From assembly GCA_965263295.1 (NCBI GenBank), contig OZ253665.1, forward strand, positions 1,856,001 through 1,920,000: a DNA stretch of 64,000 bases. The letters run 5' to 3'. Origin of the DNA: Spirochaetia bacterium. Lineage in GTDB: Bacteria; Spirochaetota; Spirochaetia; SP-2023. The notes below the pieces were generated by a model. The model did no database searches. It was not told the origin of the DNA and saw nothing but the letters and a program-made list of their open reading frames with translations. Made by a program: the position numbers and the translations under genes. Shown here one piece after another: positions 44,075 through 63,839 of this stretch (positions are counted from its first letter, which is position 1; each line of letters opens with the position of its first letter).

Positions 44075-47000
44075 AGTCCCTGGCCCGCTAACCACGAAAA
44101 ACACCAAAAAAGTACGAAACCACACGAAAAATTCTAAAAAACCGCCCCTCCCGCCTCGACGCCCCCCACAGCTCCCGTTCTCCATCCAGCCCCTATTTTA
44201 ACTTTTCCCTGTCACCCGCAGCTCCCCGTCGTCGTCCCCGCGGCCCCCCTACCTAACTTTCGTGACCTTTCGCTGTCTTCGTGCACTTTCGTGGTTCCCC
44301 TTTCGTGGTCCCCACCAAGTAACCACGAAAAACACCAAAAAAGTACGAAACCACACGAAAAATTCTAAAAAACCGCCCCTCCCGCCTGAACGCCTCCCGC
44401 AGCTCCCGTCACCCATCCAGCCTCATTTTCTACCTTCTCCCTGTCACCCAAAGCTCCCCATGTGCCACCCGCGGCCCCCCCGTCTAAATTTCGTGCCTTT
44501 TCGCTGTCTTCGTGTAATTTCGTGGTTCCCCTTTCGCTGTCTTCGTGCCCTTTCGTGGTTCCTTTCGTGCCCTTCGTGGTTCCCTTCAAAGTTCCCCGGT
44601 CACCCGCAGCTCCCCGTCCTGCCCCCCGCGGCTCCCCCGTCTAGATTTCGTGACCTTTCGCTGTCTTCGTGTAATTTCGTGGTTCCTTTCGTGGTCCCCC
44701 CCCCAAGTAACCACGAAAAACACAAAAAAAGTACGAACAACACCAAAAATCCTAAAAAACCGCCCCTGCTACCTGGACGCCCCTCCTGCCTCCCGTCACC
44801 CTGTTTTCCTGTTTTCCTGTTTTCCTGACTCCCCGGTCACCCCCAGCCCCCGTCATCCATCCAGCCCCTATTTTAACTTTTCCCTGTCACCCGCAGCTCC
44901 CCATGTGCCACCCGCGGCCCCCCTGTCGCCATTTCGTGACCTTTCGCCACCTTTCGTGTAATTTCGTGGTCCCCCTTTCGTGGTCCCCCCAAGTAACCAC
45001 GAAAAACACCAAAAAAGTACGAACAACACCAAAAATTCTAAAACACCGCCCCTGCTACCTGAACGCCCCCCTCCTGCCTCCCGTCATCCATCCAGCCCCT
45101 ATTTTAACTTTTTCCCCCTGCCTCCCTGCCCCCAAAAGGAAAATTTCCGGCTCCCCTATCTAACTTTCGTGCCCTTTCGCCGTCTTCGTGCCTTTTCGTG
45201 GTCCCCCCCACGGCTCCCCTATCTAAATTTCGTGCCTTTTCGCTGTCTTCGTGTAATTTCGTGGTCCCCCTTTCGTGGTCCCCCCCCAAGTAACCACGAA
45301 AAACACAAAAAAAGTACGAACAACACGAAAATTCTAAAAATTAAATAACCAGTCGTGTAATTGATACCTTTGGATATGTTCCAAAATTCACAAGTAATCC
45401 AAGTTTCATGCCGGTTGCTTTTAAATAATTAATCAACTGTGTCTTATGTTCGGGTGCAACAGCCTTGACAGCCTTGAGCTCAACAATAATTTTCCCATAG
45501 CAGATTAAATCCGCCTTATAAGTTTGTTGCAACGATTCACCTTTGTATGCCAAGTTTAGTTTCTTTTGCGAAACAAAGGGAATCCCATTTTTAGTAAGTT
45601 CTTTTTCAAGACATTCCTGATATACAGCTTCCAAAAAACCACACCCCATTTCGCGATACACTGCAAAAATCGCGCCCTGAATTTTATAACATTTGTCTTT
45701 AAAAAGTATTTTTTCTTGTCTCTCTTGCTTGTTGTCGTTCACCTTCTGCTCCACAATCACAAAAGGCAAAAAAACACCGCAAAATACAAAAAATTCTTCC
45801 CCAGCCCCCTTTTTTACCTTTTCCCTGTCACCCACAGCTCCCCGTCCTGCCACCCACGGCTCCCCTGCCTAAATTTCGTGCCCTTTCGCCACTTTTCGTG
45901 CCTTTTCGTGGTTCCCCTTTCGTAGTCCCCCACCAAGTAACCACGAAAAACACCAAAAAAGTACGAAACCACACGAAAAATTCTAAAAAACCGCCCCTGC
46001 TACCTGGACGCCCCTCCTGCCTCCCGTCATCCATCCAGCCCCTATTTTCCTGCCTCCTTGCCACTAAAAGGAAAATTTCCGGCTCCCCTATCTAAATTTC
46101 GTGCCCTTTCGCTGTATTTCGTGCCCTTCGTGGTTCCACCCACAGCTCCCCGTCCTGCCCCCCACGGCTCCCCAGCCTAAATTTCGTGCCTTTTCGCTGT
46201 CTTCGTGTAATTTCGTGGTTCCCCTTTCGTGGTTACTATTTCGTGACCTTTCGCTGTCTTCGTGCCTTTTCGTGGTTCCCCTTTCGTGGTCCCCCCCCCA
46301 AGTAACCACGAAAAACACCAAAAAAATACGAACAACACCAAAAATTCTAAAAAACCGCCCCTGCTGCCTAAACGCCCCCCGCGCCTCCCGTCACCCTGTT
46401 TTCCTGTTTTCCTGTTTTCCTGACTCCCCGGTCACCCCCAGCCCCCGTCATCCATCCAGCCCCTTTTCTAACTTTTTACCTGCCTCCTTGCCACTCAAAG
46501 GAAAATTTCCGGCTCCCCAGCCTAAATTTCGTGACATTTCGCCACCTTTCGTGCATTTTCGTGGTTCCCTTTAAAGTTCCCCGGTCACCCCCAGCCCCCG
46601 TCATCCATCCAGCCCCTATTTTAACTTTTCCCTGTCACCCGCAGCTCCCCATCCTGCCACCCACGGCTCCCCTGCCTAAATTTCGTGACATTTCGCCACC
46701 TTTCGTGTAATTTCGTGGTCCCCCTTTCGTGGTCCCCCCCAAGTAACCACGAAAAACACTAAAAAGTACGAACAACACCAAAAATCCTAAAACACCGCCC
46801 CTGCTGCCTGAACGCCCCTCCTGCCTCCCGTCATCCATCCAGCCCCTTTTTTAACTTTTCCCCTGTCACCCGCAGCTCCCCGTCCTGCCCCCCGCGGCTC
46901 CCCTGCCGCCATTTCGTGATTTTTCGCTGTCTTCGTGCCTTTTCGTGGTTCCCCTTTCGCTGTCTTCGTGCCCTTTCGTGGTTCCCCTTTCGTGGTTCCC

Positions 47001-48390
47001 CCAAGTAACCACGAAAAACACCAAAAAAGTACGAACAACACCAAAAATTCTAAAACACCGCCCCTGCTACCTGAACGCCCCCTCCCGCCTCCCGTCACCC
47101 TGTTTTCCTGTTTTCCTGTTTTCCTGACTCCCCGGTCACCCCCAGCCCCCGTCATCCATCCAGCCCCTATTTTAACTTTTTCCCTGTCACCCACAGCTCC
47201 CCATGTGCCACCCGCGGCCCCCCTGTCGCCATTTCGTGACCTTTCGCCACCTTTCGTGTAATTTCGTGGTCCCCCTTTCGCTGTCTTCGTGTAATTTCGT
47301 GGTCCCCCTTTCGTGGTCCCCCCAAGTAACCACGAAAAACACCCAAAAAGTACGAACAACACCAAAAATTCTAAAAAACCGCCCCTCCCGCCTGGACGCC
47401 CCTCCTGCCTCCCGTCACCCTGTTTTCCTGTTTTCCTGTTTTCCTGACTCCCCGGTCACCCCCAGCCCCCGTCATCCATCCAGCCCCTTTTCTAACTTTT
47501 CCCCTGTCACCCAAAGCTCCCCATGTGCCACCCGCGGCTCCCCAGCCTAACTTTCGTGACCTTTCGCTGTCTTCGTGTAATTTCGTGGTCCCCACAGCCC
47601 CCGTCATCCATCCAGCCCCTATTTTAACTTTTCCCCTGTCACCCGCAGCTCCCCATCCTGCCACCCACGGCTCCCCTATCTAGATTTCGTGACCTTTCGT
47701 TATTTTTCGTGCTTTTCGTGGTTCCCCTTTCGCCGTCTTCGTGCCTTTTCGTGGTCCCCGCGGCCCCCCCGTCTAAATTTCGTGCCTTTTCGCTGTCTTC
47801 GTGCCCTTTCGTGGTTCCTTTCGTGCCCTTCGTGGTTCCCTTTAAAGTTCCCCGGCCACCCACAGCTCCCCATCGTCGTCCCCGCGGCCCCCCTACCTAA
47901 CTTTCGTGACTTTTCGCCCTCTTTCGTGCCCTTCGTGGTTCCACCCGCAGCTCCCCGTCGTCGTCCCCGCGGCTCCCCCGTCTAAATTTCGTGCCTTTTC
48001 GCTGTCTTCGTGTAATTTCGTGGTCCCCCTTTCGCGGTCCCCCCCAAGTAACCACGAAAAACACCAAAAAAAGAACGAACAACACCAAAAATTCTAAAAC
48101 ACCGCCCCTGCTACCTGAACGCCCCTCCTGCCTCCCGTCACCCTGTTTTCCTGTTTTCCTGTTTTCCTGTTTTCCTGACTCCCCGGTCACCCCCAGCCCC
48201 CGTCATCCATCCAGCCCCTTTTTTACCTTTTCCCCTGCCACCCACAGCTCCCCCGTCTAGATTTCGTGACCTTTCGTTATTTTTCGTGCTTTTTCGTGGT
48301 TACTATTTCGTGACCTTTCGTTATTTTTCGTGCCCTTTCGTGGTTACTATTTTGTGCCTTTTCGTAGATTTTCGTGTAATTTCGTGGTTT
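44075..48390. repeat. Modular inverted-repeat lattice, block 1 (about 11 A modules with B modules and shuffled C-rich fillers)
   Basis: AACCACGAAAAACAC at ~44090, 44321, 44709, 44995, 45292, 45939, 46304, 46745, 47007, 47328 and 48050; TTTCGTG...TTTCGTGGT clusters between them. Confidence 0.95.
45341..45742 (-). CDS. GxxExxY protein (PD-(D/E)XK nuclease-like)
   Basis: MGCGFLEAVYQECL (GxxExxY), YKADLIC, IIVELKAV, QLINYLKATGMKLGLLVNFG; probable GTG start at 45742 after GGAG (133 aa). Confidence 0.93.
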   Translation of the reverse strand: MNDNKQERQEKILFKDKCYKIQGAIFAVYREMGCGFLEAVYQECLEKELTKNGIPFVSQKKLNLAYKGESLQQTYKADLICYGKIIVELKAVKAVAPEHKTQLINYLKATGMKLGLLVNFGTYPKVSITRLVI

Positions 48391-48396
48391 GGTTCA

Positions 48397-48438
48397 ACAA
48401 AAAAAACGCCGCCCACTGTCTTCCGACAGGAGGCGGCG
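48397..48438 (-). terminator. Intrinsic terminator of the repeat lipoprotein gene
   Basis: CGCCGCC-CACTGTC-TTCC-GACAG-GAGGCGGCG hairpin with an A-run on + (U-tract on -). Confidence 0.75.
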
Positions 48439-48480
48439 CGGCGTAGGCGAAAAAGCTAACGCGAAAAGTTAATTACCCAA

Positions 48481-50562
48481 TTACTGAGCAACCGTCAGAG
48501 AAATATTATGGGTTACACTAGATCCCAGATCAACTGTGACCTTCGAATTTGCTACATCAACAGCCAGCTTAGTTTTATCAAAAGCGCCATCAACTTCGCC
48601 TTGTTCTGACCCACTAAGATTTGTATAAGCAGACAAAGCCTTAACTGCGTCCAAAATGGCCTTTTTGGTATCATCATCATCGGCAATTGTTGTGCCCTGA
48701 GCAAGCTCTAGGGTCGCTATTGCTTTAACAAATGTATTTAAGTCAAAAAGATTGCCAGTGCCACCGCCAGCAGCAACCGTCAGAGAAATATTATGGGTTA
48801 CACTAGATCCCAGATCAACTGTGACCTTCGAATTTGCTACATCAACAGCCAGCTTAGTTTTATCAAAAGCGCCATCAACTTCGCCTTGTTCTGACCCACT
48901 AAGATTTGTATAAGCAGACAAAGCCTTAACTGCGTCCAAAATGGCCTTTTTGGTATCATCATCATCGGCAATTGTTGTGCCCTGAGCAAGCTCTAGGGTC
49001 GCTATTGCTTTAACAAATGTATTTAAGTCAAAAAGATTGCCAGTGCCACCGCCAGCAGCAACCGTCAGAGAAATATTATGGGTTACACTAGATCCCAGAT
49101 CAACTGTGACCTTCGAATTTGCTACATCAACAGCCAGCTTAGTTTTATCAAAAGCGCCATCAACTTCGCCTTGTTCTGACCCACTAAGATTTGTATAAGC
49201 AGACAAAGCCTTAACTGCGTCCAAAATGGCCTTTTTGGTATCATCATCATCGGCAATTGTTGTGCCCTTAGCAAGCTCTAGGGTCGCTATTGCTTTAACA
49301 AATGTATTTAAGTCAAAAAGATTGCCAGTGCCACCGCCAGCAGCAACCGTCAGAGAAATATTATGGGTTACACTAGATCCCAGATCAACTGTGACCTTCG
49401 AATTTGCTACATCAACAGCCAGCTTAGTTTTATCAAAAGCGCCATCAACTTCGCCTTGTTCTGACCCACTAAGATTTGTATAAGCAGACAAAGCCTTAAC
49501 TGCGTCCAAAATGGCCTTTTTGGTATCATCATCATCGGCAATTGTTGTGCCCTGAGCAAGCTCTAGGGTCGCTATTGCTTTAACAAATGTATTTAAGTCA
49601 AAAAGATTGCCAGTGCCACCGCCAGCAGCAACCGTCAGAGAAATATTATGGGTTACACTAGATCCCAGATCAACTGTGACCTTCGAATTTGCTACATCAA
49701 CAGCCAGCTTAGTTTTATCAAAAGCGCCATCAACTTCGCCTTGTTCTGACCCACTAAGATTTGTATAAGCAGACAAAGCCTTAACTGCGTCCAAAATGGC
49801 CTTTTTGGTATCATCATCATCGGCAATTGTTGTGCCCTTAGCAAGCTCTAGGGTCGCTATTGCTTTAACAAATGTATTTAAGTCAAAAAGATTGCCAGTG
49901 CCACCGCCAGCAGCAACCGTCAGCTCAATTTTCTTGGATGGAGTCGTAAGTACAACACTGGCAGGAGTTTGCCCTGAAGCTGGAGTAACCTTCAGATTAT
50001 CTTTGGCAAAATATCCATCAAAAGTTGATTTTTCGGTGCCAAGCTTGTCATAGAACAGAACCTTTTTAGCTTTCGCTTTAGCTGCCTCCAAAATGGCAGT
50101 TTTGATATCATCAGTATCGGCAATTTTTGTGTCAGAAGGAAGCTCTAGGCCATCTGCCACAATCTTGTCAAGCAATTCGCGAGCCTCAGGCTGGAGCAAA
50201 TAAAAAGTTCCTTCACCTTTCTTTACTTTAGTATTTTCATCTGCAGCTACTTTGCCGTAAAAGACTGTTAGACCAATGGGCATTGCAGCAGGGTCATTAA
50301 AAGTTAATCCTCCTCCATTTTTATCTGAATTATAGAATAAAGGGGATGAAAGTTCTCCGTCTGTACCAAATAGAGCATTGTAAGTGGCGGTTTCTTTATC
50401 ACCCACCACTGCACCCACATAAGTTTTATCAGTATCATTTGGTAAAACCGTTGGATTCGTAAAGCTGTTGGCGGCAGAGCTTCCGCCGTCATCGCTGTCG
50501 TCGCAGGCGAAGAACGCCAGCCCGACCAGCAACATAGGAATTAAATAGAATATTTTCCGCAT
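48481..50562 (-). CDS. Surface lipoprotein with five tandem 95-aa repeats
   Basis: MRKIFYLIPMLLVGLAFFA-C lipobox after AAGGAG; repeat TVAAGGGTGNLFDL...THNISL x5. Confidence 0.88.
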   Translation of the reverse strand: MRKIFYLIPMLLVGLAFFACDDSDDGGSSAANSFTNPTVLPNDTDKTYVGAVVGDKETATYNALFGTDGELSSPLFYNSDKNGGGLTFNDPAAMPIGLTVFYGKVAADENTKVKKGEGTFYLLQPEARELLDKIVADGLELPSDTKIADTDDIKTAILEAAKAKAKKVLFYDKLGTEKSTFDGYFAKDNLKVTPASGQTPASVVLTTPSKKIELTVAAGGGTGNLFDLNTFVKAIATLELAKGTTIADDDDTKKAILDAVKALSAYTNLSGSEQGEVDGAFDKTKLAVDVANSKVTVDLGSSVTHNISLTVAAGGGTGNLFDLNTFVKAIATLELAQGTTIADDDDTKKAILDAVKALSAYTNLSGSEQGEVDGAFDKTKLAVDVANSKVTVDLGSSVTHNISLTVAAGGGTGNLFDLNTFVKAIATLELAKGTTIADDDDTKKAILDAVKALSAYTNLSGSEQGEVDGAFDKTKLAVDVANSKVTVDLGSSVTHNISLTVAAGGGTGNLFDLNTFVKAIATLELAQGTTIADDDDTKKAILDAVKALSAYTNLSGSEQGEVDGAFDKTKLAVDVANSKVTVDLGSSVTHNISLTVAAGGGTGNLFDLNTFVKAIATLELAQGTTIADDDDTKKAILDAVKALSAYTNLSGSEQGEVDGAFDKTKLAVDVANSKVTVDLGSSVTHNISLTVAQ
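48488..49923. repeat. 285-bp tandem repeat x5 (intragenic)
   Basis: GCAACCGTCAG at 48488, 48773, 49058, 49343, 49628 and 49913; the only difference seen is one K/Q codon. Confidence 0.97.
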
Positions 50563-51141
50563 AAGAAAACTCCTTGAATGTATATTTTTACCCAAAATAC
50601 AAACTGGGCGCCCAAAAGTCAAGCCTGTATCGCGGTTTTGGCGCAAAAAAATCACTTTTTTCTCCTTTCGTGCCATTTCGCTGGCCAAGTAACCACGAAA
50701 AACACAAAAATTCTAAAACACCGCCCCTCCCTGCCACCCATGGATTACCTGCCTAAATTTCGTGACCTTTCGCTGTCTTCGTGCTTTTCGTGGTCACCTT
50801 TTCGCCACCTTTCGTGCAATTCGTGGTCCCCCTTCAAAGTTCCCCGGTCACCCGCAGCCTAAATTTCGTGACCTTTCGCTGTCTTCGTGCACTTTCGTGG
50901 TTACTATTTCGTGCCTTTTCGTAGATTTTCGTGTAATTTCGTGGTTCCCGTCATCCATCCAGCCCCTATTTTAACTTTTCCCTGTCACCCGCAGCTCCCC
51001 GTCGTCGTCCCCGCGGCCCCCCTACCTAACTTTCGTGATTTTTCGCTGTCTTCGTGTAATTTCGTGGTTACTATTTCGTGCCTTTTCGCTGTCTTCGTGC
51101 TTTTCGTGGTCCCTCTTTCGTGGTCCCTCTTTCGTGGTCCC

Positions 51142-51555
51142 CTAACCAGGTAGAAACTGATAAGCTGCGACAAGTGCGGCGATAGTCACGCCACTACAAC
51201 TGATCATGGCCGTCAGCGACCATCTCATAAAATTATTTATTTGCGCTTGCACCGACTCAAAACGCTTATCCACCTGCTCAAAACGCTTATCCACCTGCTC
51301 AAAACGCTTATCCACCTGCTCAAAACGCCTGTTCATCTGTTCCTGCACTTGCTCAAAGCGATCATTCATATCCTTTCTAAGCGTCAATATTTCACCCCGC
51401 AGATCTTGTTCAAGATGCGTTATGTGGTTCGTCTGTGCTTTAAGCACCAAAACAATGATCTCTTCGCTCTTTAGAGCCTCATTATTGGTTACTTTTTGCA
51501 TGGCTTTTTGGGCATTTTCGTCCAGCCATTGTTCAAAACCCGAATTGTCAAACAT
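51142..51555 (-). CDS. Membrane-anchored coiled-coil protein (DUF1640/Bdr-like architecture), copy 1, 137 aa
   Basis: Head, EQVDKRF heptads and EQVQEQMNRRF hendecad, C-terminal TM helix; GGAGG RBS. Confidence 0.85.
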   Translation of the reverse strand: MFDNSGFEQWLDENAQKAMQKVTNNEALKSEEIIVLVLKAQTNHITHLEQDLRGEILTLRKDMNDRFEQVQEQMNRRFEQVDKRFEQVDKRFEQVDKRFESVQAQINNFMRWSLTAMISCSGVTIAALVAAYQFLPG

Positions 51556-51576
51556 GAAAAAATACCTCCAAACCCA

Positions 51577-51605
51577 ATTCTAAATCTATCCAACATATTT
51601 TGCAA
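51577..51605 (-). promoter_or_regulatory. sigma70-like promoter of cassette 1 (repeated upstream of all eight copies)
   Basis: TTGCAA-17 nt-TAGAAT, then TGGGTTT-GGAGG-TATTTTT(T)C-ATG. Confidence 0.65.
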
Positions 51606-51790
51606 ACCAGATTTTGGTTCCCTCAGAATCCCTGGCCCCGTAACCACGAACAACACCAAAAATTCTAAAACACCGCCCCTCCCGCCTCGACGCCCCCCCC
51701 CTGCCACCCACAGCTCCCCGTCGTCGTCCCCGCGGCTCCCCCAGCCTAAATTTCGTGACCTTTCGCTGTCTTCGTGCTTTTCGTGGTCCC

Positions 51791-52249
51791 CTAACCAGGT
51801 AGAAACTGATAAGCTGCGACAAGTGCGGCGATAGTCACGCCACTACAACTGATCATGGCCGTCAGCGACCATCTCATAAAATTATTTATTTGCGCTTGCA
51901 CCGACTCAAAACGCTTATCCACCTGCTCTTGCGCCTGCTTAAAGCGCATATTCATTTGCTCTTGTGCGCACTCAAAACGCTTATCGACCTGCTCAAAGCG
52001 CTTATCCACCTGCTCAAAACGCCTGTTCATCTGTTCCTGCACTTGCTCAAAGCGATCATTCATATCCTTTCTAAGCGTCAATATTTCACCCCGCAGATCT
52101 TGTTCAAGATGCGTTATGTGGTTCGTCTGTGCTTTAAGCACCAAAACAATGATCTCTTCGCTCTTTAGAGCCTCATTATTGGTTACTTTTTGCATGGCTT
52201 TTTGAGCATTTTCGTCCAGCCATTGTTCAAAACCCGAATTGTCAAACAT
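51791..52249 (-). CDS. Coiled-coil cassette copy 2, 152 aa
   Basis: Same head and anchor; includes the ECAQEQMNMRFKQAQ insert. Confidence 0.85.
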   Translation of the reverse strand: MFDNSGFEQWLDENAQKAMQKVTNNEALKSEEIIVLVLKAQTNHITHLEQDLRGEILTLRKDMNDRFEQVQEQMNRRFEQVDKRFEQVDKRFECAQEQMNMRFKQAQEQVDKRFESVQAQINNFMRWSLTAMISCSGVTIAALVAAYQFLPG

Positions 52250-52741
52250 GAAAAATACCTCCAAACCCAATTCTAAATCTATCCAACATATTTTGCAAAC
52301 CAGATTTTGGTTCCCCCTCAGAATCCCTGGCCCCGTAACCACGAACAACACCAAAAATTCTAAAACACCGCCCCTCCCTGCCACCCATGGATTACCCGTC
52401 TAAATTTCGTGACCTTTCGCTGTCTTCGTGCTTTTCGTGGTCACCTTTTCGCCACCTTTCGTGCAATTCGTGGTCCCCCTTTAAAGTTCCCCGGTCACCC
52501 GCAGCCCCCCATCGTTTCACCCGCGGCTCCCCAGCCTAAATTTCGTGACCTTTCGCTGTCTTCGTGCACTTTCGTGGTCCCCCTTTAAAGTTCCCCGGTC
52601 ACCCGCAGCTCCCCATCGTTTCACCCGCGGCCCCCCTACCTAACTTTCGTGATTTTTCGCTGTCTTCGTGTAATTTCGTGGTTACTATTTCGTGCCTTTT
52701 CGCTGTCTTCGTGCTTTTCGTGGTCCCTCTTTCGTGGTCCC

Positions 52742-53197
52742 CTAACCAGGTAGAAACTGATAAGCTGCGACAAGTGCGGCGATAGTCACGCCACTACAAC
52801 TGATCATGGCCGTCAGCGACCATCTCATAAAACTATTTATTTGCGCTTGCACCGACTCAAAACGCTTATCCACCTGCTCAAAACGCTTATCCACCTGCTC
52901 AAAACGCTTGTCCACCTGCTCAAAACGCTTGTCCACCTGCTCAAAACGCCTGTTCATCTGTTCCTGCACTTGCTCAAAGCGCTTGTCGACTTGCTCAAAG
53001 CGATCATTCATATCCTTTCTAAGCGTCAATATTTCACCCCGCAGATCTTGTTCAAGATGCGTTATGTGGTTCGTCTGTGCTTTAAGCACCAAAACAATGA
53101 TTTCTTCGCTCTTTAGAGCCTCATTATTGGTTACTTTTTGCATGGCTTTTTGAGCATTTTCGTCCAGCCATTGTTCAAAACCCGAATTGTCAAACAT
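52742..53197 (-). CDS. Coiled-coil cassette copy 3, 151 aa
   Basis: Five EQVDKRF heptads; INSF variant. Confidence 0.85.
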   Translation of the reverse strand: MFDNSGFEQWLDENAQKAMQKVTNNEALKSEEIIVLVLKAQTNHITHLEQDLRGEILTLRKDMNDRFEQVDKRFEQVQEQMNRRFEQVDKRFEQVDKRFEQVDKRFEQVDKRFESVQAQINSFMRWSLTAMISCSGVTIAALVAAYQFLPG

Positions 53198-53468
53198 GAA
53201 AAAATACCTCCAAACCCAATTCTAAATCTATCCAACATATTTTGCAAACCAGATTTTGGTTCCCTCAGAATCCCTGGCCCCGTAACCACGAACAACACCA
53301 AAAATTCTAAAACACCGCCCCTCCCGCCTGAACGCCCCCCCTGCCACCCATGGATTACCCGTCTAAATTTCGTGACTTTTCGCTGTCTTCGTGCTTTTCG
53401 TGGTCCCCGCGGCTCCCCCTACCTAACTTTCGTGATTTTTCGCTGTCTTCGTGCCCTTTCGTGGTCCC

Positions 53469-53861
53469 CTAACCAGGTAGAAACTGATAAGCTGCGACAA
53501 GTGCGGCGATAGTCACGCCACTACAACTGATCATGGCCGTCAGCGACCATCTCATAAAATTATTTATTTGCGCTTGCACCGACTCAAAACGCTTATCCAC
53601 CTGCTCAAAACGCTTATCCACCTGCTCAAAACGCCTGTTCATCTGTTCCTGCACTTGCTCAAAGCGATCATTCATATCCTTTCTAAGCGTCAATATTTCA
53701 CCCCGCAGATCTTGTTCAAGATGCGTTATGTGGTTCGTCTGTGCTTTAAGCACCAAAACAATGATCTCTTCGCTCTTTAGAGCCTCATTATTGGTTACTT
53801 TTTGCATGGCTTTTTGAGCATTTTCGTCCAGCCATTGTTCAAAACCCGAATTGTCAAACAT
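53469..53861 (-). CDS. Coiled-coil cassette copy 4, 130 aa
   Basis: Shortest stalk (two heptads). Confidence 0.85.
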   Translation of the reverse strand: MFDNSGFEQWLDENAQKAMQKVTNNEALKSEEIIVLVLKAQTNHITHLEQDLRGEILTLRKDMNDRFEQVQEQMNRRFEQVDKRFEQVDKRFESVQAQINNFMRWSLTAMISCSGVTIAALVAAYQFLPG

Positions 53862-54086
53862 GAAAAATACCTCCAAACCCAATTCTAAATCTATCCAACA
53901 TATTTTGCAAACCAGATTTTGGTTCCCTCAGAATCCCTGGCCCCGTAACCACGAACAACACCAAAAATTCTAAAACACCGCCCCTCCCGCCTCGACGCCC
54001 CCCCTGCCACCCATGGATTACCTGCCTAAATTTCGTGCCTTTTCGTAGATTTTCGTGTAATTTCGTGGTCCCTCTTTCGTGGTCCC

Positions 54087-54545
54087 CTAACCAGGTAGAA
54101 ACTGATAAGCTGCGACAAGTGCGGCGATAGTCACGCCACTACAACTGATCATGGCCGTCAGCGACCATCTCATAAAATTATTTATTTGCGCTTGCACCGA
54201 CTCAAAACGCTTATCCACCTGCTCTTGCGCCTGCTTAAAGCGCATATTCATTTGCTCTTGTGCGCACTCAAAACGCTTATCGACCTGCTCAAAGCGCTTA
54301 TCCACCTGCTCAAAACGCCTGTTCATCTGTTCCTGCACTTGCTCAAAGCGATCATTCATATCCTTTCTAAGCGTCAATATTTCACCCCGCAGATCTTGTT
54401 CAAGATGCGTTATGTGGTTCGTCTGTGCTTTAAGCACCAAAACAATGATCTCTTCGCTCTTTAGAGCCTCATTATTGGTTACTTTTTGCATGGCTTTTTG
54501 GGCATTTTCGTCCAGCCATTGCTCAAAACCCGAATTGTCAAACAT
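54087..54545 (-). CDS. Coiled-coil cassette copy 5, 152 aa
   Basis: Protein identical to copy 2. Confidence 0.85.
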   Translation of the reverse strand: MFDNSGFEQWLDENAQKAMQKVTNNEALKSEEIIVLVLKAQTNHITHLEQDLRGEILTLRKDMNDRFEQVQEQMNRRFEQVDKRFEQVDKRFECAQEQMNMRFKQAQEQVDKRFESVQAQINNFMRWSLTAMISCSGVTIAALVAAYQFLPG

Positions 54546-54903
54546 GAAAAATACCTCCAAACCCAATTCTAAATCTATCCAACATATTTTGCAAACCAGA
54601 TTTTGGTTCCCTCAGAATCCCTGGCCCCGTAACCACGAACAACACCAAAAATTCTAAAACACCGCCCCTCCCGCCTCGACGCCCCCACAGCTCCCGTTCT
54701 CCATCCAGCCCCTATTTTAACTTTTCCCTGTCACCCGCAGCTCCCCGTCGTCGTCCCCGCGACCCCCCAGCCTAACTTTCGTGACCTTTCGCTGTCTTCG
54801 TGCCCTTTCGTGGTTACTATTTCGTGACCTTTCGCTGTCTTCGTGCACTTTCGTGGTTACTATTTCGTGACTTTTCGCTGTCTTCGTGTAATTTCGTGGT
54901 CCC

Positions 54904-55359
54904 CTAACCAGGTAGAAACTGATAAGCTGCGACAAGTGCGGCGATAGTCACGCCACTACAACTGATCATGGCCGTCAGCGACCATCTCATAAAACTATTT
55001 ATTTGCGCTTGCACCGACTCAAAACGCTTATCCACCTGCTCAAAACGCTTATCCACCTGCTCAAAACGCTTGTCCACCTGCTCAAAACGCTTGTCCACCT
55101 GCTCAAAACGCCTGTTCATCTGTTCCTGCACTTGCTCAAAGCGCTTGTCGACTTGCTCAAAGCGATCATTCATATCCTTTCTAAGCGTCAATATTTCACC
55201 CCGCAGATCTTGTTCAAGATGCGTTATGTGGTTCGTCTGTGCTTTAAGCACCAAAACAATGATTTCTTCGCTCTTTAGAGCCTCATTATTGGTTACTTTT
55301 TGCATGGCTTTTTGAGCATTTTCGTCCAGCCATTGTTCAAAACCCGAATTGTCAAACAT
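54904..55359 (-). CDS. Coiled-coil cassette copy 6, 151 aa
   Basis: Protein identical to copy 3. Confidence 0.85.
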   Translation of the reverse strand: MFDNSGFEQWLDENAQKAMQKVTNNEALKSEEIIVLVLKAQTNHITHLEQDLRGEILTLRKDMNDRFEQVDKRFEQVQEQMNRRFEQVDKRFEQVDKRFEQVDKRFEQVDKRFESVQAQINSFMRWSLTAMISCSGVTIAALVAAYQFLPG

Positions 55360-55699
55360 GAAAAAATACCTCCAAACCCAATTCTAAATCTATCCAACAT
55401 ATTTTGCAAACCAGATTTTGGTTCCCCCTCAGAGTCCCTGGCCAAGTAACCACGAACAACACCAAAAATTCTAAAACACCGCCCCTCCCGCCTCGACGCC
55501 CCCCCTGCCTCCCATGGATTACCCGTCTAAATTTCGTGACCTTTCGCTGTCTTCGTGCTTTTCGTGGTCACCTTTTCGCCACCTTTCGTGCCCTTCGTGG
55601 TCCCCGCGGCTCCCCCAGCCTAACTTTCGTGACTTTTCGCTGTCTTCGTGCCCTTTCGTGTTCGTGCCTTTTCGCTGTCTTCGTGCTTTTCGTGGTCCC

Positions 55700-56179
55700 C
55701 TAACCAGGTAGAAACTGATAAGCTGCGACAAGTGCGGCGATAGTCACGCCACTACAACTGATCATGGCCGTCAGCGACCATCTCATAAAATTATTTATTT
55801 GCGCTTGCACCGACTCAAAACGCTTATCCACCTGCTCTTGCGCCTGCTTAAAGCGCATATTCATTTGCTCTTGTGCGCACTCAAAACGCTTATCGACCTG
55901 CTCAAAGCGCTTGTCCACCTGCTCAAAACGCCTGTTCATCTGTTCCTGCACTTGCTCAAAGCGCTTGTCGACTTGCTCAAAGCGATCATTCATATCCTTT
56001 CTAAGCGTCAATATTTCACCCCGCAGATCTTGTTCAAGATGCGTTATGTGGTTCGTCTGTGCTTTAAGCACCAAAACAATGATCTCTTCGCTCTTTAGAG
56101 CCTCATTATTGGTTACTTTTTGCATGGCTTTTTGAGCATTTTCGTCCAGCCATTGCTCAAAACCCGAATTGTCAAACAT
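55700..56179 (-). CDS. Coiled-coil cassette copy 7, 159 aa
   Basis: Longest; has the leading heptad of copy 3 plus the ECAQ insert of copy 2. Confidence 0.85.
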   Translation of the reverse strand: MFDNSGFEQWLDENAQKAMQKVTNNEALKSEEIIVLVLKAQTNHITHLEQDLRGEILTLRKDMNDRFEQVDKRFEQVQEQMNRRFEQVDKRFEQVDKRFECAQEQMNMRFKQAQEQVDKRFESVQAQINNFMRWSLTAMISCSGVTIAALVAAYQFLPG

Positions 56180-56523
56180 GAAAAAATACCTCCAAACCCA
56201 ATTCTAAATATATCCAACATATTTTGCAAACCAGATTTTGGTTCCCTCAGAATCCCTGGCCCCGTAACCACGAACAACACCAAAAATTCTAAAACACCGC
56301 CCCTCCCTGCCACCCATGGATTACCCGTCTAAATTTCGTGACCTTTCGCTGTCTTCGTGCACTTTCGTGGTCCCCCTTCAAAGTTCCCCGGTCACCCGCA
56401 GCCTAAATTTCGTGACCTTTCGCTGTCTTCGTGCACTTTCGTGGTCCCCGCGGCTCCCCAGCCTAACTTTCGTGACCTTTCGTAGACTTTCGTGTAATTT
56501 CGTGGTCCCTCTTTCGTGGTCCC

Positions 56524-56982
56524 CTAACCAGGTAGAAACTGATAAGCTGCGACAAGTGCGGCGATAGTCACGCCACTACAACTGATCATGGCCGTCAGCG
56601 ACCATCTCATAAAATTATTTATTTGCGCTTGCACCGACTCAAAACGCTTATCCACCTGCTCTTGCGCCTGCTTAAAGCGCATATTCATTTGCTCTTGTGC
56701 GCACTCAAAACGCTTATCGACCTGCTCAAAGCGCTTGTCCACCTGCTCAAAACGCCTGTTCATCTGTTCCTGCACTTGCTCAAAGCGATCATTCATATCC
56801 TTTCTAAGCGTCAATATTTCACCCCGCAGATCTTGTTCAAGATGCGTTATGTGGTTCGTCTGTGCTTTAAGCACCAAAACAATGATCTCTTCGCTCTTTA
56901 GAGCCTCATTATTGGTTACTTTTTGCATGGCTTTTTGGGCATTTTCGTCCAGCCATTGTTCAAAACCCGAATTGTCAAACAT
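56524..56982 (-). CDS. Coiled-coil cassette copy 8, 152 aa
   Basis: Protein identical to copy 2. Confidence 0.85.
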   Translation of the reverse strand: MFDNSGFEQWLDENAQKAMQKVTNNEALKSEEIIVLVLKAQTNHITHLEQDLRGEILTLRKDMNDRFEQVQEQMNRRFEQVDKRFEQVDKRFECAQEQMNMRFKQAQEQVDKRFESVQAQINNFMRWSLTAMISCSGVTIAALVAAYQFLPG

Positions 56983-57138
56983 GAAAAAATACCTCCAAAC
57001 CCAATTCTAAATCTATCCAACATATTTTGCAAACCAGATTTTGGTTCCCTCAGAATCCCTGGCCCCGTAACCACGAACAACACCAAAAATTCTAAAACAC
57101 CGCCCCTGCTGCCTCGACGCCCCCCCACGCCTCCCGTG

Positions 57139-57923: not shown

Positions 57924-58060
57924 AAATTTCTCCTTGCCGCTTGTCAGGGCGGGCTTTGTGTGATACATTGGCTATATAAGCCCTGTGGTAAGTACGCTAG
58001 TTGGTAAGCGGGCCCAATCAACGATGGCTAGATGCCGTTCAAATCGGACCGTCACGGGGT

Positions 58061-58975
58061 TTATTTTTTATATAATGCATTGCCAACTGATTCCTCCGTT
58101 TCCCCTAGTCTGACCTTGGTAAAGCTTACCAGTTGTAGTGGCCGCCCGTTGTTCTGGCGAAATACCACACGGGCCTCGTGATGCCTGTTTAGTTTATAGG
58201 TAAATAGCCATTCGCCGCCGTCACGGTAAATTGCGTCTGGGTTCGCCAGGTGGCGCGGCATGGCGCCGATTTCCTTGATTGTCAGGTCTCGGTCGGGGTT
58301 AAAGTCGCCTTTCTTTCCTCCGCGTCCCCGACTGCCGTGGCGCAGGGCTTTGTCGCTCGCCATAAGCTTGGGGTCGAAGTCCATGACGTCCATAACTTGC
58401 TGCGCGAGTGTGGCCATGTGCACGGGAATTTCGGTGGTGCCGTGCTTTTCCTCGATCACCGTGCGGCTGTATTTTTGCCATGCTCCATGGCTCATCTGTA
58501 CTTTGGCCATCTCGTCGCGGTAGTTTTGCATTACGCCGCGCAGGGCGCCGGCCTTGCGCAGGCCCTTGTAGGTTTTCCAGTTGGGTGCCAGGGCTTCCTT
58601 GGCTGGGTTATAGGCCCAGGCGGGGTCAAGCTGTGGTGCTCCTTCTTGTGGCGTGGGCAGGGTCTTTTTGGCGCCCTTTGCCCATTCTGCGTCGGCTTGC
58701 TCCTGGGTTAGTGGGCTGCGATAACAGGCGCAGCGCCAGCCGTTGGGCGGGCAGATTACATCCCAGGCCGGGTCGTCGGCTTTGAGGATCATGTTATGCC
58801 AGGCTGCGTGGCTCTGACGTTTGTTTTTTCTTTGCCGCTGCTTGTATTGCCAATAGGGATAGATGTGTTGCACGCTCCACAGCTTGCGGGTCTGGCCGGC
58901 ACTGTAGGCGGTGAGCTGGTTTTGCTCGTAGATGATGCGGATGCGCCAGTTGATGTAGTTCTGGGCCGGCAGTTT
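58061..58975 (-). pseudogene. 5'-truncated Mu gpF-like (MuF) gene
   Basis: WRIRIIYEQNQLTAYSAG, YPYWQY, RQSHAAWH, DDPAWDVICPPNGWRCAC, LDPAWAYNP; the upstream part of the track ORF is antisense tape-measure sequence. Confidence 0.8.
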
Positions 58976-60091
58976 GTGCTGGCGATTCCCAAGGCTTACG
59001 CCTTTGCCGTGGCCAACTGGGCCGTGATCGGCCCCATGATCGCGATCACCGTGGGAATAGCCGCCGTCATCGCCATTGGCGTGCTGCTGATAAAACATTG
59101 GGACACAGTCAAAGCCTTTGGCGCCAAGGTATGGAATGGGATTGTTTACGGGGTACAAACCGCAATTACCTGGTTCAGCAACTTGCTGAATAACCCATTC
59201 TTTGCGGGTGTCGGGGTTTTATTCGCTCCCTGGATAACTATACCGGCTTTGGTTGTCAAAATAATCATGGCCCACTGGGAGCCGATCAAGGCGTTTTTTG
59301 CGGCCGTCTGGGATGGGATCACGTTGGGCGCGCGGGCCGCCTGGGCTTTTGTTGTGGGTGTTTTTAGTCCCGTTGGCAATGCCATTGTCGCCGCATGGCA
59401 GCCCGCAAAGGCTTTTTTCATTGGGATGTGGGATGCCGTATTGTTTGCACTGCACGGCGTCGGGGCTTTCTTTAACGGGGTTTTTGCGGCTATCGCGGGC
59501 AGGCTTATTGCCGTGTGGCAGCCCGCCAAGGCGTTCTTTGTGGGCATGTGGGATGCGGTATTGCTTGTGCTGCACAGCGTCGGGGGCTTTTTTAGCGGGA
59601 CTTTCGCGGCTATCGCGCAGGGGATTATTACGGCCTGGCAGCCGGTAAAGGCCTTCTTTGCCGCATTGTTTGAGCCCATTAATAAGGTGGTGAGCAGCGC
59701 CAGTTCCGCCTGGAAATGGCTTGTGGGCGGCAATACCGAAGGAGCAGGCGGCGGCCAAGCCGTGCCTGACAATGTCAAGAAATTTGGCGCTGGGGGCTAT
59801 ACTGGTCCGGGCGGGGCCAGTCAGGTGGCGGGCGTGGTGCACGCGGGCGAATATGTGTTCTCGCAAAGTGCGGTGGACACGATCGGGCTGGGCAACCTCG
59901 ATTATCTACACAAACATCCGGGGCCGATTCAATTCGCCCAGGGAATTGGCGCGGCGGAAGGCCCCGCGCCGAGCGGCGGTGGCAACGGGAACATATCCAT
60001 TCACATCGAAAACTTGACAGTCAATGCAGACGAGATTGAGGAAATCGGCGACTTTGTGCGCTTGCTGATGCGGGCCGGGGGTGCGGCGTGA
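58965..60091 (+). pseudogene. 5'-truncated phage tail tape measure protein (C-terminal part)
   Basis: LLIKHWDTVKAF, repeated W(E/Q)P(I/A/V)KAFFxxxWD amphipathic units, FGAGGYTGPGG...AGVVHAGEYV. Confidence 0.8.
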
Positions 60092-60696
60092 TCTTGAGTT
60101 CAATGCCCGAAGAAAAGGCCCTATTGCTCAACGATGTCGTGGTGCCGGGCATAGAGGTCTCGTGCTCCTTTGACGGGAGGGCGCAGGTTGACCGCTCCCG
60201 GTGGAAAGACGGCGGGCGTGATTTTACCCTGAATGGCTTTGACCCGGTGGAGTTTTCTGTAAACCTTAAAATTGTGGATGAACAGGCCCCAGGTCAAGTA
60301 ACAGATCAGTCAACGAGTCACGGCGGCAAGAGTCGGGAAGACCTGCTCGCCGAGGTCATCGCCCTGTTTCGCAAGACCGAGAACGGCGGCCAGCCGGTGC
60401 AATACGAGATACTGCTGCCGGAGGCAAGGGCCTGGGGCATCAAGCGCTGTTATCTTCTGAGTATGAGCAGCGCTCGCGGCAGCAAGCTGGTCTACGATGT
60501 GAGCCTCAAGTTTGTGGAGTTCAACCCTGAGATTGACAGGATCACCAAGCAGCAGAAGAAAAAACAGGCGGCCAAAAGCGCGCCAAAGCCTCCCTCAAGC
60601 GGCGATGCGGCCACGACCGCCGAGCGGAAACAGTTTGACGAGCATGCGGAGATATGGAGGCGCCATGATCCAAGTCTGCGCCAGGATATTTATTAG
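60088..60696 (+). CDS. Putative phage tail protein (post-tape-measure, tube initiator-like)
   Basis: 4-bp overlap with the tape measure stop; ends in VSLKFVEF plus a basic tail. Assigned mainly by position. Confidence 0.55.
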   Translation: MILSSMPEEKALLLNDVVVPGIEVSCSFDGRAQVDRSRWKDGGRDFTLNGFDPVEFSVNLKIVDEQAPGQVTDQSTSHGGKSREDLLAEVIALFRKTENGGQPVQYEILLPEARAWGIKRCYLLSMSSARGSKLVYDVSLKFVEFNPEIDRITKQQKKKQAAKSAPKPPSSGDAATTAERKQFDEHAEIWRRHDPSLRQDIY

Positions 60697-60718
60697 CCTT
60701 TAAATATTGGAGGATACA

Positions 60719-61819
60719 ATGGAAGTGCGAATATTACGGGATGGCGAGGATACGGGTTATAAGTACCTGAGCTGCCGCCTATCGGCCACCGTGGATTTGG
60801 TTAGCCAGCGCTGCGATCTCTACCTGAGCCGCGAGGCTGATTTTGCCGTAGGTCAGGAGCTAGGCATTGAGGGAGGCGGCGTGCGGCTGTTTAGCGCCCC
60901 GGTGGTGAAGGTGGGGCCAGGGCGGCACAACCAGTTGCGCATTATAGCCTTTGCGGCGCTGGATGAGGTGGTGCACGTGAATTACCACCAGGAGGATGCG
61001 GCCAATATCCTTTCGGACATAATTGAGAAGCACAACTACAAGAGCACGGACAAGCGCATGGACTTTGCGTTAAGGGGTGAGCGCATGAGCCTGCTGCACC
61101 ACTGGCTCGACACTGTGGCTCCAGACAAAGAAGCCTTTATGGACGCCGAAGGGGTCTTACAGGTGGGGCTGGAGCCAGGCAGTACGGTGCATTTGGGCAA
61201 GCTGATAGAGGAACACGGAGACTGGCAGGAATACCGCGCCGTGCCGGTGCTTTTGGGCTGGGTATCGGGTCAGGGCATCGTAAGGGGTCTAGAGTACGCG
61301 CTCAAGCCGACGCGGGAGCGCCTGCGCATCTGGTGGGGTGAATTAAAGGAGAGTGCAAAAGACTTTTCTGTTAAAAGTAGCCTGAAAAAAGCCTTTGAGG
61401 CGACCAAGGACGCTATTTTAGGGCCAGGAAGTATCGGAAACTTTAGCAACAAGACAATTTATGCTATTATGAACGACAGGGTTGGCGGCCATCCGCTAGA
61501 AAGCCTGGTGCGCCCAGTCCCTTCGGGCACGATCTTGCAAGGCTATATAGACGGCGTGGTTGATGTGGAAGGTTATCAAGTTTATAAGATGAATGAAAAT
61601 ACCAATTTAACTTTTGATGGTGATTTTCAGGTTCTGCAGCCCGATGACAAAGTAGAGATACATTTGAAGAATATAAAAGTTATAATGGGGGAGAATAACG
61701 ATGGATATGGCCTATACCGTGACATGCTAAGGAGCAGTAACTTTCAGCATGTCTACACTGGCCAGTTGTCAATAGCCATGTATAGTTGGTGGTCTGCAGC
61801 TCAAAAACACGGGGGATAG
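60719..61819 (+). CDS. Putative baseplate hub-like protein with AT-rich C-terminal extension
   Basis: GGAGG RBS before ATG 60719; lies between the tail and gpV-like genes; composition shifts near 61340. Confidence 0.5.
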   Translation: MEVRILRDGEDTGYKYLSCRLSATVDLVSQRCDLYLSREADFAVGQELGIEGGGVRLFSAPVVKVGPGRHNQLRIIAFAALDEVVHVNYHQEDAANILSDIIEKHNYKSTDKRMDFALRGERMSLLHHWLDTVAPDKEAFMDAEGVLQVGLEPGSTVHLGKLIEEHGDWQEYRAVPVLLGWVSGQGIVRGLEYALKPTRERLRIWWGELKESAKDFSVKSSLKKAFEATKDAILGPGSIGNFSNKTIYAIMNDRVGGHPLESLVRPVPSGTILQGYIDGVVDVEGYQVYKMNENTNLTFDGDFQVLQPDDKVEIHLKNIKVIMGENNDGYGLYRDMLRSSNFQHVYTGQLSIAMYSWWSAAQKHGG

Positions 61820-61821
61820 TA

Positions 61822-62049
61822 ATGCTTAAAATCCATAAAAAAAATATTTTACAATTATCGTATGTTTACTGGTTAGGACTATATCCGTTCATTCTATTAT
61901 TGGCATTCGAATGGGTTCCTATTGTGCTGCTAGCGGTTGTTATAACCGTTCTTTTGGTTTTTAATAGAAAGTATATCAAGGTCTTAGCTATAAAAACAAA
62001 CTTGATAATGCTTGTATTTTGGCTGTTAATTATAGTTATCTTTGGCTAG
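61822..62049 (+). CDS. Small AT-rich membrane protein (75 aa)
   Basis: Almost entirely hydrophobic; starts 2 bp after the upstream stop. Confidence 0.55.
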   Translation: MLKIHKKNILQLSYVYWLGLYPFILLLAFEWVPIVLLAVVITVLLVFNRKYIKVLAIKTNLIMLVFWLLIIVIFG

Positions 62050-62082
62050 TGACTATAGTTACCTAAGGCTTCTTAATATATT

Positions 62083-62425
62083 ATGCCTCCCGATGATACC
62101 CTAGCCCCACTGTACCGCAGCTGGCTCAATTCCGCGATGCCCAAACGCCAGGGGCCAGAGCTGGGCAAGGTGCAAAGCAGTACCTGCAGTGCCCAGGAAT
62201 ACACCTGCGCCGTAAAGCTGCTGGAGCCAGATAGCCTGGCCGAAACTGGAACCGAGCTAAGCGGCGTCAGCATCAACCCGCTGTGGGCCGACTCGCACGG
62301 GTCGGGTATCTATGTCCCACCAGAAAACGGCCAGATTGTGGTGATTGGCTACCTGGGCATGGATCGCAGTCATCCCTTTGTCTCGGCAATCTGGGGTGGC
62401 CAGACCCCCAATTTGCGCCCCAGCT
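62083..62425 (+). pseudogene. Baseplate spike gpV-like N-terminal fragment, truncated by the repeat lattice
   Basis: GKV...AVKLL...LWADSHGSGIYVPPENGQIVVIGYLGMDRSHPFV resembles the gpV OB-fold; the frame then runs into repeat sequence. Confidence 0.7.
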
Positions 62426-62429
62426 GCCC

Positions 62430-63835
62430 CGCTGCGGCTCCCCTGCCTAAATTTCGTGACCTTTCGTTATTTTTCGTGCCCTTTCGTGGTCCCCCTTTAA
62501 AAGTCTCTGGCCGAGTAACCACGAAAAACACCAAAAAAGTACGAAACAACACGAAAAATTCTAAAACACCGCGCCTGCTGCCTGGACGCCCTTCTTGGCT
62601 GCCGTCCCCTTTTTTAACCGTTTTCCTGCCCTCCACAGCTCCCGTTGCCCATTCGGCCCCCTTTTCTGCTTTCCCCTGGCGCCCACAGATCCCCCGTCTA
62701 GATTTCGTGCCTTTTCGCCCTATTTCGTGCCCTTTCGTGGTCCCCCTTTCGCCACCTTTCGTGCAATTCGTGGTCCCCATCGTTCCACCCACGGCCCCCC
62801 CCGTCTAGATTTCGTGCCTTTTCGCCCTATTTCGTGCCCTTTCGTGGTCCCCCTTTCGCCACCTTTCGTGCTTTTCGTGGTTCCCTTTCACAGTCCCTGG
62901 CCGAGTAACCACGAACAACACAAAAAAAAGTACGAAACGACACGAAAATTCTAAAACACCGCGCCTGCTGCCTGGACGCCCTTCTTGGCTGCCGTCCCCT
63001 TTTTTAACCGTTTTCCTGCCCTCCACAGCTCCCGTTGCCCATTCGGCCCCCTTTTCTGCTTTCCCCTGGCGCCCACAGATCCCCCGTCTAGATTTCGTGC
63101 CTTTTCGCCCTATTTCGTGCCCTTTCGTGGTCCCCCTTTCGCCCTCTTTCGTGCAATTCGTGGTTCCCTTTCACAGTCCCTGGCCGAGTAACCACGAAAT
63201 ACACTAAAAAATACGAACGACACGAAAAATCCTAAAACACCGCCCCTGCTACCTGAACGCCCCCCCACGCCTCCCGTCATCCTTTTTCCTGCCCCCCCCC
63301 TGCCACCCACAGCTCCCCCGTCTAAATTTCGTGACCTTTCGCTGTCTTCGTGCTTTTCGTGGTCACCTTTTCGCCCTCTTTCGTGCACTTTCGTGGTTCC
63401 CCCTTTAAAGTTCCCCTGTCACCCACAGCCCCCCATCGTTTCACCCGCGGCTCCCCAGCCTAACTTTCGTGACCTTTCGCTGTCTTCGTGCTTTTCGTGG
63501 TCACCTTTTCGCCCTCTTTCGTGCACTTTCGTGGTTCCCCCTTTAAAGTTCCCCTGTCACCCACAGCCCCCCATCGTTTCACCCGCGGCTCCCCAGCCTA
63601 ACTTTCGTGACCTTTCGCTGTCTTCGTGCTTTTCGTGGTCACCTTTTCGCCCTCTTTCGTGCACTTTCGTGGTTCCCCCTTTAAAGTTCCCCTGTCACCC
63701 ACAGCCCCCCATCGTTTCACCCGCGGCTCCCCAGCCTAACTTTCGTGACCTTTCGCTGTCTTCGTGCCCTTTCGTGGTTACTATTTCGTGCCTTTTCGCC
63801 ACTTTTCGTGTAATTTCGTGGTTCCTTTCGTGATC
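62430..63835. repeat. Inverted-repeat lattice, block 3
   Basis: A modules at ~62517, 62907 and 63190; includes a 138-bp unit repeated three times (GACC at 63333, 63471, 63609, 63747). Confidence 0.95.
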
Positions 63836-63839
63836 CCAC

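Follow-up and report, generated by a model that had tools for sequence, protein, structure and literature searches.

The window analysed here, i.e., 64,000 nucleotides at G000:C1:1856001-1920000 on the single 2.41-Mb contig of the source genome G000 (a Spirochaetia bacterium), contains an array of about 20 kb in which a gene of the GxxExxY nuclease-like family is surrounded by two repeat modules, A and its imperfect inverse B. This layout raises the question of what ties the gene to the repeats, and whether its product had a part in spreading them and duplicating the genes between them. The comparisons below make it very probable that A and B bound a GxxExxY cassette as its two arms, and that the gene-less repeats derive from this cassette.

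The array (44,075-63,840) was confirmed to be real. It carries 23 A modules, every one on the + strand (positions 44090-63190), and 81 B ends (TTCGTGGT) lie within 44001-64000 in the same orientation as the A modules, far above the maxima of 2 (A) and 3 (B) in 100 dinucleotide shuffles; the window's initial 44 kb hold one A and no B. An earlier, sequence-only reading of this DNA had counted about 23 A/B-bounded units with shuffled fillers, and that count stood. The units measure 140-720 bp, no two are alike, each A is accompanied by one to eight B ends, and the fillers recur between units as a common vocabulary. This recurrence, Rfam matches in the window to rRNA only, and the absence of cas among the 21 window proteins scanned set the array apart from a CRISPR array. 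In a comparison across the genus, its composite units were specific to G000. The picture of a 20-kb lattice needed trimming, with repeats making up 7,769 of the 19,761 bases of the array stretch and 60 more loci lying elsewhere in the genome. Besides the GxxExxY gene, the remainder consists of one gene for a lipoprotein-like protein, eight for coiled-coil proteins, and 5.3 kb of a Mu-like phage remnant (57137-62420) that the earlier list of cargo had missed. Since the A at 57069 precedes this remnant and the next B, at 62490, follows it, the GxxExxY gene is not strictly the sole complete gene within an A...B pair, as had been claimed; it is the sole one in a compact unit.

The GxxExxY gene (45341..45742, - strand; about 133 amino acids from an inferred GTG start) ends in a stop codon at 45341-45343, which adjoins module A (ending at 45339) as originally described. 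Its product matches TIGR04256 (E 6e-44, 149 bits, cut-off 35) and PF13366 (E 1.6e-43, 148 bits, cut-off 22), and in an alignment the family residues G25, E28, Y31, D68, E78, and K80 (numbered over the 123-amino-acid core, 45344-45712) are all intact. By the curated cut-offs, the GxxExxY motif, and the D and ExK residues, it is thus a member of the GxxExxY/PDDEXK_3 family. The gene is present in a single copy in G000 and, judged from dN values of 0.10-0.13 and dS values above 2 or saturated against six close homologues, is under purifying selection. A model based on a 62-row alignment (predicted local distance difference test, pLDDT, of 95) predicts a minimal restriction-nuclease-like fold; it replaced a single-sequence fold (pLDDT 48), which was discarded. 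The best Foldseek match was Cas4 SSO0001 (E 3e-4), the neighbours being Cas4, Uma2-like proteins, and Hjc, with a best Z of 7.9 and none reaching 8. Because these matches are restriction-nuclease-like only and none is decisive, no specific function follows from the fold. A profile match to T7 endonuclease I (E 0.16) is a lead only. Scanning viral contigs with the protein of homologue L097 yielded no relatives, and the surroundings of the gene showed no tRNA and no excess of promoters or terminators.

Read in the direction of the gene, the gene-bearing unit comprises an intact left arm (module B on the - strand, 45874..45912, located by the repeat scan), filler, a degenerate right arm, a decayed left arm, the gene, and the right arm (module A on the - strand, 45292..45339), which matches the downstream arm of homologues. 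The decayed left arm (45713..45742, - strand) would encode the N-terminus VNDNKQERQE, as suggested by comparison with MNHEKHERHE in homologue L003. The degenerate right arm (about 45755..45797, - strand), which the sequence-only reading had also pointed out, can be read directly in the sequence as a copy belonging to an upstream hairpin, and similar upstream hairpins are common among homologues.

Arms of this kind accompany the family across genomes. Among the best 80 of 298 genome loci with homologues, 78 carry arm hexamers within 250 bp on both sides of the gene, and hexamer density is 18.3 per kb near the gene vs. 3.4 per kb at a distance of 1.2-1.7 kb, in agreement with the proposal that A and B are the cognate repeats of GxxExxY. 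The expected co-variation of repeat and protein clade was likewise found. On a tree of 79 core proteins (cores without the arm; few columns and many open forks; L065, with an internal stop in its match, was left out of tree and alignment), arm subtype changes 6 times vs. a mean of 22.5 and a minimum of 18 in 1,000 shuffles; phylum, scored on 75 rows from 19 phyla, switches 43 times. The CGCGAA arm subtype is confined to one clade, itself spread over several phyla. A distant clade (33-38% identity) has a different arm of the same build: its 80 loci show the AATC-type pattern 76 times and the CACGAA type not once, vs. 2 and 79 times, respectively, among 80 loci of the near clade. At the level of whole genomes, G002 combines a distant-clade gene with 19 copies of the AATC-type arm, of which G000, G001, and G003 have none; G003, which lacks a GxxExxY gene, has no CACGAA pairs, and G001, with four gene matches, has 21. 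Among 40 relatives, which as kin are not independent, at least four arm matches occur in five of the nine with a gene over the cut-off and in one of the 31 without.

The arms are built of three to four direct CACGAA boxes of 9-11 bp in a row, and the A and B rows are inverted relative to each other. The boxes are conserved, and the two spacer bases between them vary freely; moreover, at the six spacer positions, agreement between paired arms is no higher than between shuffled pairs (P 0.05-1.0, 65 arm pairs). Conserved boxes with free, non-co-varying spacers fit protein-binding sites better than a selected RNA stem, and it is rather likely that the GxxExxY protein acts specifically on the arms. 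As a separate observation, two GxxExxY cassettes of identical score (L086 and L093) lie 4.6 kb apart in G001, and L093 carries a 129-bp tandem duplication made up of the end of the upstream gene and the left arm.

The cassette measures 0.45-0.6 kb and has GxxExxY as its sole gene. A downstream open reading frame (ORF) was present at 63 of the 80 loci (17 had none), and the first long one encodes a restriction-modification subunit in 42 of these 63. At the same junction, L005 and L097 have flanks that are 79 and 86% identical in nucleotide sequence around cassettes whose proteins are 41% identical, and the corresponding values for L036 and L079 are 86 and 89% vs. 66%. An empty junction is found in L223, on a Desulforapulum plasmid, and in the filled state the cassette follows the stop codon of the upstream gene and precedes the ribosome-binding site of the downstream one; divergence at this junction would mask any target duplication. 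These cases show that the cassette moves as a unit between lineages and into gene junctions. The origin of gene-less lattices is shown by G042, the genome that contains L005: it has 308 arm matches and tandem composite units, and the fillers of its gene-less units are pieces of the GxxExxY gene, in both orientations, with 71-86% amino acid identity to the L097 clade. At L239-L246 in G042, gene-less GxxExxY cassettes make up an independent genome-wide lattice, in which a cassette fragment of the CACGGA type is nested in reverse inside CACGAATGGA-type arms.

A scan of the whole G000 chromosome for the modules, as the sequence-only reading had proposed, returned 72 repeat loci totalling 22.4 kb, 60 of them outside the array, with the largest cluster surrounding the single gene. 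At 43 of the 60 outside loci a junction motif precedes A, and 24 contain a B-junction-A join, so that the copied piece often spans a head-to-tail joint. The genome holds 46 A-to-B units of 123-313 bp, and in the predicted structure of all 46 the terminal arms pair. Repeats lie within 300 bp of 32 of the 76 multi-copy ORFs vs. 99 of 1,769 ORFs, and, by a rough sequence pattern, lipobox-like ORFs account for 19 of the 99 ORFs near repeats vs. 56 of the 1,670 far from them (ORFs were called by a simple caller, and both sets contain the array's own genes). Among 42 dispersed duplicated blocks, 21 have at least one end no more than 30 bp from a repeat (25 of the 84 ends in all), vs. 1.0% of random and 7.6% of intergenic positions; homology mostly ends at the repeat without resuming beyond it. 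Gene-less derivatives have multiplied into head-to-tail arrays and border duplicated surface-protein genes, in line with the earlier suggestion that the repeats mark duplicated envelope genes.

The uncut state is known for three joins in coding sequences. At window position 62,420 a phage gene passes into filler at CCGCGGC, and at G000 422,296 a coiled-coil nuclease-like gene passes into the junction motif with 9 of 10 bases in common. At G000 557,273 a 352-bp element stands in place of 1,366 bp of phage remnant, with both flanks 100% identical and with GCTTTC and GGTTA (5-6 bases each) in common at its two joins. Joins overall have 5-10 bases in common, and the repeat ends are ragged across the 72 loci. 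No target duplication was found, and the sole two-sided filled/empty pair is a replacement without duplication. Ragged joins and the lack of a target duplication argue against ordinary transposition. Miniature inverted-repeat transposable elements (MITEs) are gene-less internal-deletion derivatives, and composite transposons have a unit-cargo-unit layout. The G000 repeats resemble both, in their gene-less derivatives and in their unit-cargo-unit arrangement around duplicated genes, and differ in having no fixed termini, no target duplication, and, among the enzyme families searched, no DDE transposase with matching ends. The original designation as REPIN- or MITE-like survives for the inverted doublet and the tandem arrays, and not for a MITE in the strict sense. 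In 26 of 35 clusters (p 0.006) the G-rich cassette strand coincides with the leading strand, which was assigned by GC skew, and ORFs show no such bias (910 of 1,769); the cassette strand matches the orientation of the upstream gene at 37 of 57 loci, and many repeat loci adjoin terminator-like hairpins.

As the sequence-only reading had stated, no transposase, integrase, reverse transcriptase (RT), or cas match appeared in Pfam among the 21 window proteins scanned (16 of the 28 ORFs of the first 37 kb, read as housekeeping, were unscanned). In G000 as a whole (92.6% complete, single contig) the Y1 transposase profile PF01797 had 0 matches, with the control positive in 6 of 14 genomes; the REP-associated tyrosine transposase (RAYT; REP, repetitive extragenic palindrome) that the earlier reading had named as a possible agent elsewhere in the genome was not found. 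The search was limited to this profile, rve, RT, PDDEXK_2, PF00589, PF13340, and the GIY-YIG families; rve, RT, and PDDEXK_2 gave no match, and the sole GIY-YIG match lies elsewhere, inside a 687-amino-acid frame. Outside the window there are two tyrosine recombinases (PF00589) and nine IS5-type matches (DUF4096, PF13340), five of them over the cut-off.

We propose that the nuclease cuts at its own arms and that host repair copies arms and neighbours, a reading drawn from the fold, the linkage, and the precedent of SsnA (see below). GxxExxY would recognise its own boxes and nick or cut at or near the arms, most likely in single-stranded or extruded DNA at replication; host repair would then copy from another repeat or from DNA with 5-10 matching bases, thereby spreading arms, shuffling fillers, and duplicating neighbouring genes with no need for a transposase. 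Cutting followed by such copying would explain the ragged joins, the replacements, the mosaic fillers, the tandem arrays, and the duplicated neighbours. As the best explanation of the whole, it stands about level with the doubts that surround it; the narrower claim that GxxExxY cutting drives amplification in G000 falls a little short of that. More tentatively still, GxxExxY might be a minimal, transposase-free mobility enzyme, a nuclease of 123 residues that cuts at box arrays specific to its clade and leaves it to host repair to move the cassette; the single gene of G000, with its roughly 70 loci, might then have been domesticated as a source of duplicated and shuffled surface-protein genes.

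Several observations weigh against this proposal. The arm/protein co-variation also follows from simple linkage, and the distant relatives include homologues without clear arms. G002 has 10 CACGAA pairs although its only gene is of the other clade, and no intact gene of the matching (L097) clade was found in the draft assembly of G042. In G000 itself, the arms have departed from the 9-bp period, so that the canonical triple patterns find 0 and 1 matches, those adjoining the gene's 5′ end are decayed, and no gene-derived sequence was recognised in the fillers. The breakpoint count is inflated because BLAST extends into repeats, and a scripted control for homology at the joins gave P ≤0.033 in 4 of 11 testable joins, which are not independent. 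Tandem amplification also occurs without A/B, both in the 285-bp repeats of the lipoprotein-like gene and in arrays at G000 552971 and 2213813. Finally, host recombination by itself accounts for much of the pattern within the genome and is a serious rival.

Put in full, that rival holds that the cassette arrived once and is now a passive relic, i.e., that host homologous recombination, gene conversion, and slippage spread gene-less arms and duplicated surface genes under selection, with the nuclease having another job or none. Ragged ends and joins at short common sequence are what it would give, paralogous loci do have flanks in common, and it sits comfortably with arrays that formed without A/B, with expansions in G042 and G002 that lack an intact cognate gene, and with the decay of the gene-proximal arms in G000. 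We nevertheless consider it less likely than the proposal, since it leaves unexplained the new joins in coding sequences that previously had no repeat (62420, G000 422296, and 557273), the leading-strand bias, the position of the largest array at the single gene, and the conserved boxes with free spacers. An improbable alternative is an RNA-level element, in which the arms form a transcript stem around the gene (cf. intervening sequences and REP stabilisers), the protein either having RNA as its target or travelling as a passenger in defence operons. The restriction-modification subunits downstream, translational coupling in L003, the universal pairing of terminal arms, and the abutting terminator-like hairpins would suit it; against it speak the absence of co-variation between the spacers of paired arms, the excess of A-C over G-T mismatches on the sense strand (91 vs. 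50), the ability of the arms to pair on either strand, and the location of the G000 gene outside any defence operon. A sense-strand G-U preference in the arm stems was tested and not found, and no RNA holder was listed.

Mobilisation of the repeats in trans, as MITEs of an IS5-family transposase encoded elsewhere in G000, appears very improbable. The IS5-type matches mentioned above supply a candidate enzyme, and in the inverted 21-bp ends of an IS5-type element (L218 974-994 and 1794-1814) the inner 10 bases (GTCACGAAAT) are the same as the innermost B box. The outer tips of this element, however, occur at 7 and 13 places of which none is a repeat locus (the closest, 422594, is some 300 bp away from one), the distance to the nearest repeat is 11-143 kb for four IS5-like ORFs, neither fixed ends nor target-site duplications were observed, and the searches for Y1 transposase, rve, and RT had no match. 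It is less credible still that the 20-kb array is partly an assembly artefact. No contig record spans the whole stretch, and the exact order and copy number of the array, for which contigs are the only basis, are provisional. Nevertheless, every unit differs, the modules recur at 60 further loci, contigs of four runs from two studies cover 21-30 of 30 bins, and in X1 and X3, each of which may be the source sample, a 562-bp contig that takes in arm, gene, and upstream region agrees with the window at every base. In X4 a coiled-coil contig has a depth of 35 vs. 2-4 for single-copy pieces, which is a hint only.

The proposed reading, in which the nuclease acts on its own arms, has its closest precedent in the Ssn/NTS (SRM) system. 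In the accessible text of PMC11893778, SsnA of Neisseria meningitidis cuts single-stranded DNA at its flanking repeat, and the authors liken the layout to an insertion sequence. As far as that text goes, the two systems have in common a small single-domain nuclease gene with its own repeat on both sides, repeat variants that pair with protein variants (here, clade-specific arms at 78 of 80 loci), and many repeat copies beside membrane-protein genes (here, 72 loci). They differ in that Ssn is a GIY-YIG enzyme with a 20-50-nucleotide hairpin repeat and demonstrated single-strand cleavage, whereas GxxExxY is PD-(D/E)XK by profile and fold, has rows of three to four direct 9-11-bp boxes, and is known from sequence and predicted fold; empty and swapped sites are shown for the GxxExxY cassette. 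The REPIN/RAYT system, as described in the accessible part of PMC3337134, likewise has inverted repeats around a variable spacer, none alike, in tandem arrays, and a single-copy enzyme gene flanked by its own repeat type. RAYT, however, is an HUH tyrosine transposase, absent from G000, and REPs are palindromic, unlike the GxxExxY arms; the GxxExxY cassette moreover crosses phyla and its G000 copies are ragged-ended. The cassette thus works like Ssn/NTS and RAYT/REPIN, and its enzyme is that of neither.

For the GxxExxY/PDDEXK_3 family, the accessible text of PMC3424549 reports unknown function and multiple transfers; the window protein is a plain member, and arms, cassette, and gene-less expansions are unmentioned in that text. 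Another published paper, in the part available, names GxxExxY as an RT neighbour only. No description of a GxxExxY cassette was found in the literature searched, of which subscription journals were mostly uncovered and supplements excluded, and the nuclease-plus-repeat system is apparently undescribed. The arms give a widespread family of unknown function a concrete, testable substrate, and with GxxExxY the pairing of a nuclease with its repeat would have evolved independently three times, the other two cases being RAYT/REP and Ssn/NTS. The closed chromosome of G000 shows the repeats at scale, bordering duplicated genes for lipoproteins and coiled-coil proteins, and so has a bearing on the formation of tandem arrays like those of REPINs and bacterial interspersed mosaic elements, called unexplained in the accessible part of PMC3337134. 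If GxxExxY is indeed such a mobility enzyme, many pairs of enzyme and site would be available from nature in this one family, with a specificity code that can be read.

Along the window, the array is preceded by a duplicated 2.8-kb segment (41510..44305, + strand) that comprises a gene for a 608-amino-acid lipoprotein-like protein plus the first repeat unit; an inverted copy lies at G000 1976778-1979570 (99.75% over 2,796 bp), and the duplication terminates within a B module. Repeat block 1 (44075..45340, + strand) consists of four gene-less units and the A arm of the gene-bearing unit, with A at 44090, 44321, 44709, 44995, and 45292. Beyond the gene, the repeat scan placed six head-to-tail gene-less units in block 2 (45939..48395, + strand). 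The lipoprotein-like gene that follows (48481..50562, - strand) has five internal 285-bp repeats (48487-49923), which are free of A/B. In run X3, contig depth is zero over 48812-49475, within these internal repeats, and many unit joints are unlike those of X1; the cause may lie in the strain or in the mapping.

Eight tandem genes for coiled-coil proteins with a C-terminal hydrophobic part (130-159 amino acids; 50680..57137, - strand) come next, with a different 140-405-bp repeat unit between each. Their 5′ coding parts are at least 98.4% and their 3′ parts at least 99.0% identical, the number of heptads varies, and a ninth copy lies at G000 1929961-1930375. The Mu-like phage remnant (57137..62420, + strand), recognised by profile matches, contains a Mu F-like head gene, a tape-measure fragment, and three further ORFs, the last of which is interrupted by the repeat at 62420; an uncut copy, 96% identical, is present at G000 726107-729780. 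Block 4 (62405..63840, + strand), a partial unit followed by three units, runs up to a terminator-like hairpin that belongs to the next lipoprotein gene, and its final 93 bp recur identically at G000 931520-931612.

Elsewhere in G000, a 1.2-kb array at 1705725-1706944 is built of a repeat variant that has drifted and whose A modules are shortened. Related genes for lipoprotein-like proteins with a PKD domain, six in number and mostly repeat-bounded, lie at 807280, 863206, 989055, 2001326, 2083763, and 2086073. A five-copy family combining a coiled coil with a nuclease-like part (133144, 683002, 731957, 898428, and 1453667, plus the fragment at 422296) has each copy within 300 bp of a repeat, and its Atlas neighbours are DUF8196, DUF3782, and Hjc, in minority shares. 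This family was considered as a relative of GxxExxY and proved unrelated by profile, which leaves it as a second nuclease-fold candidate.

Upstream of the array, 37078-40186 holds 23S and 5S rRNA genes, and no 16S match was found in the window. The 3.3-kb rRNA copy recurs at G000 2201223-2204537, and another repeat, 2.1 kb long, occurs at 537512 and 1590976, which suggests that the rRNA genes are unlinked. Finally, a second repeat family of 200-300 bp, with recurring AAAAnTTGCAG motifs, is found in the window at 57137-57340 and 26774-27089 and elsewhere in G000 at 723128, 557623, 991542, 2083203, and 1882440. Three Mu-like remnants begin with it, at three further loci it joins module B, and it is possibly a phage end.

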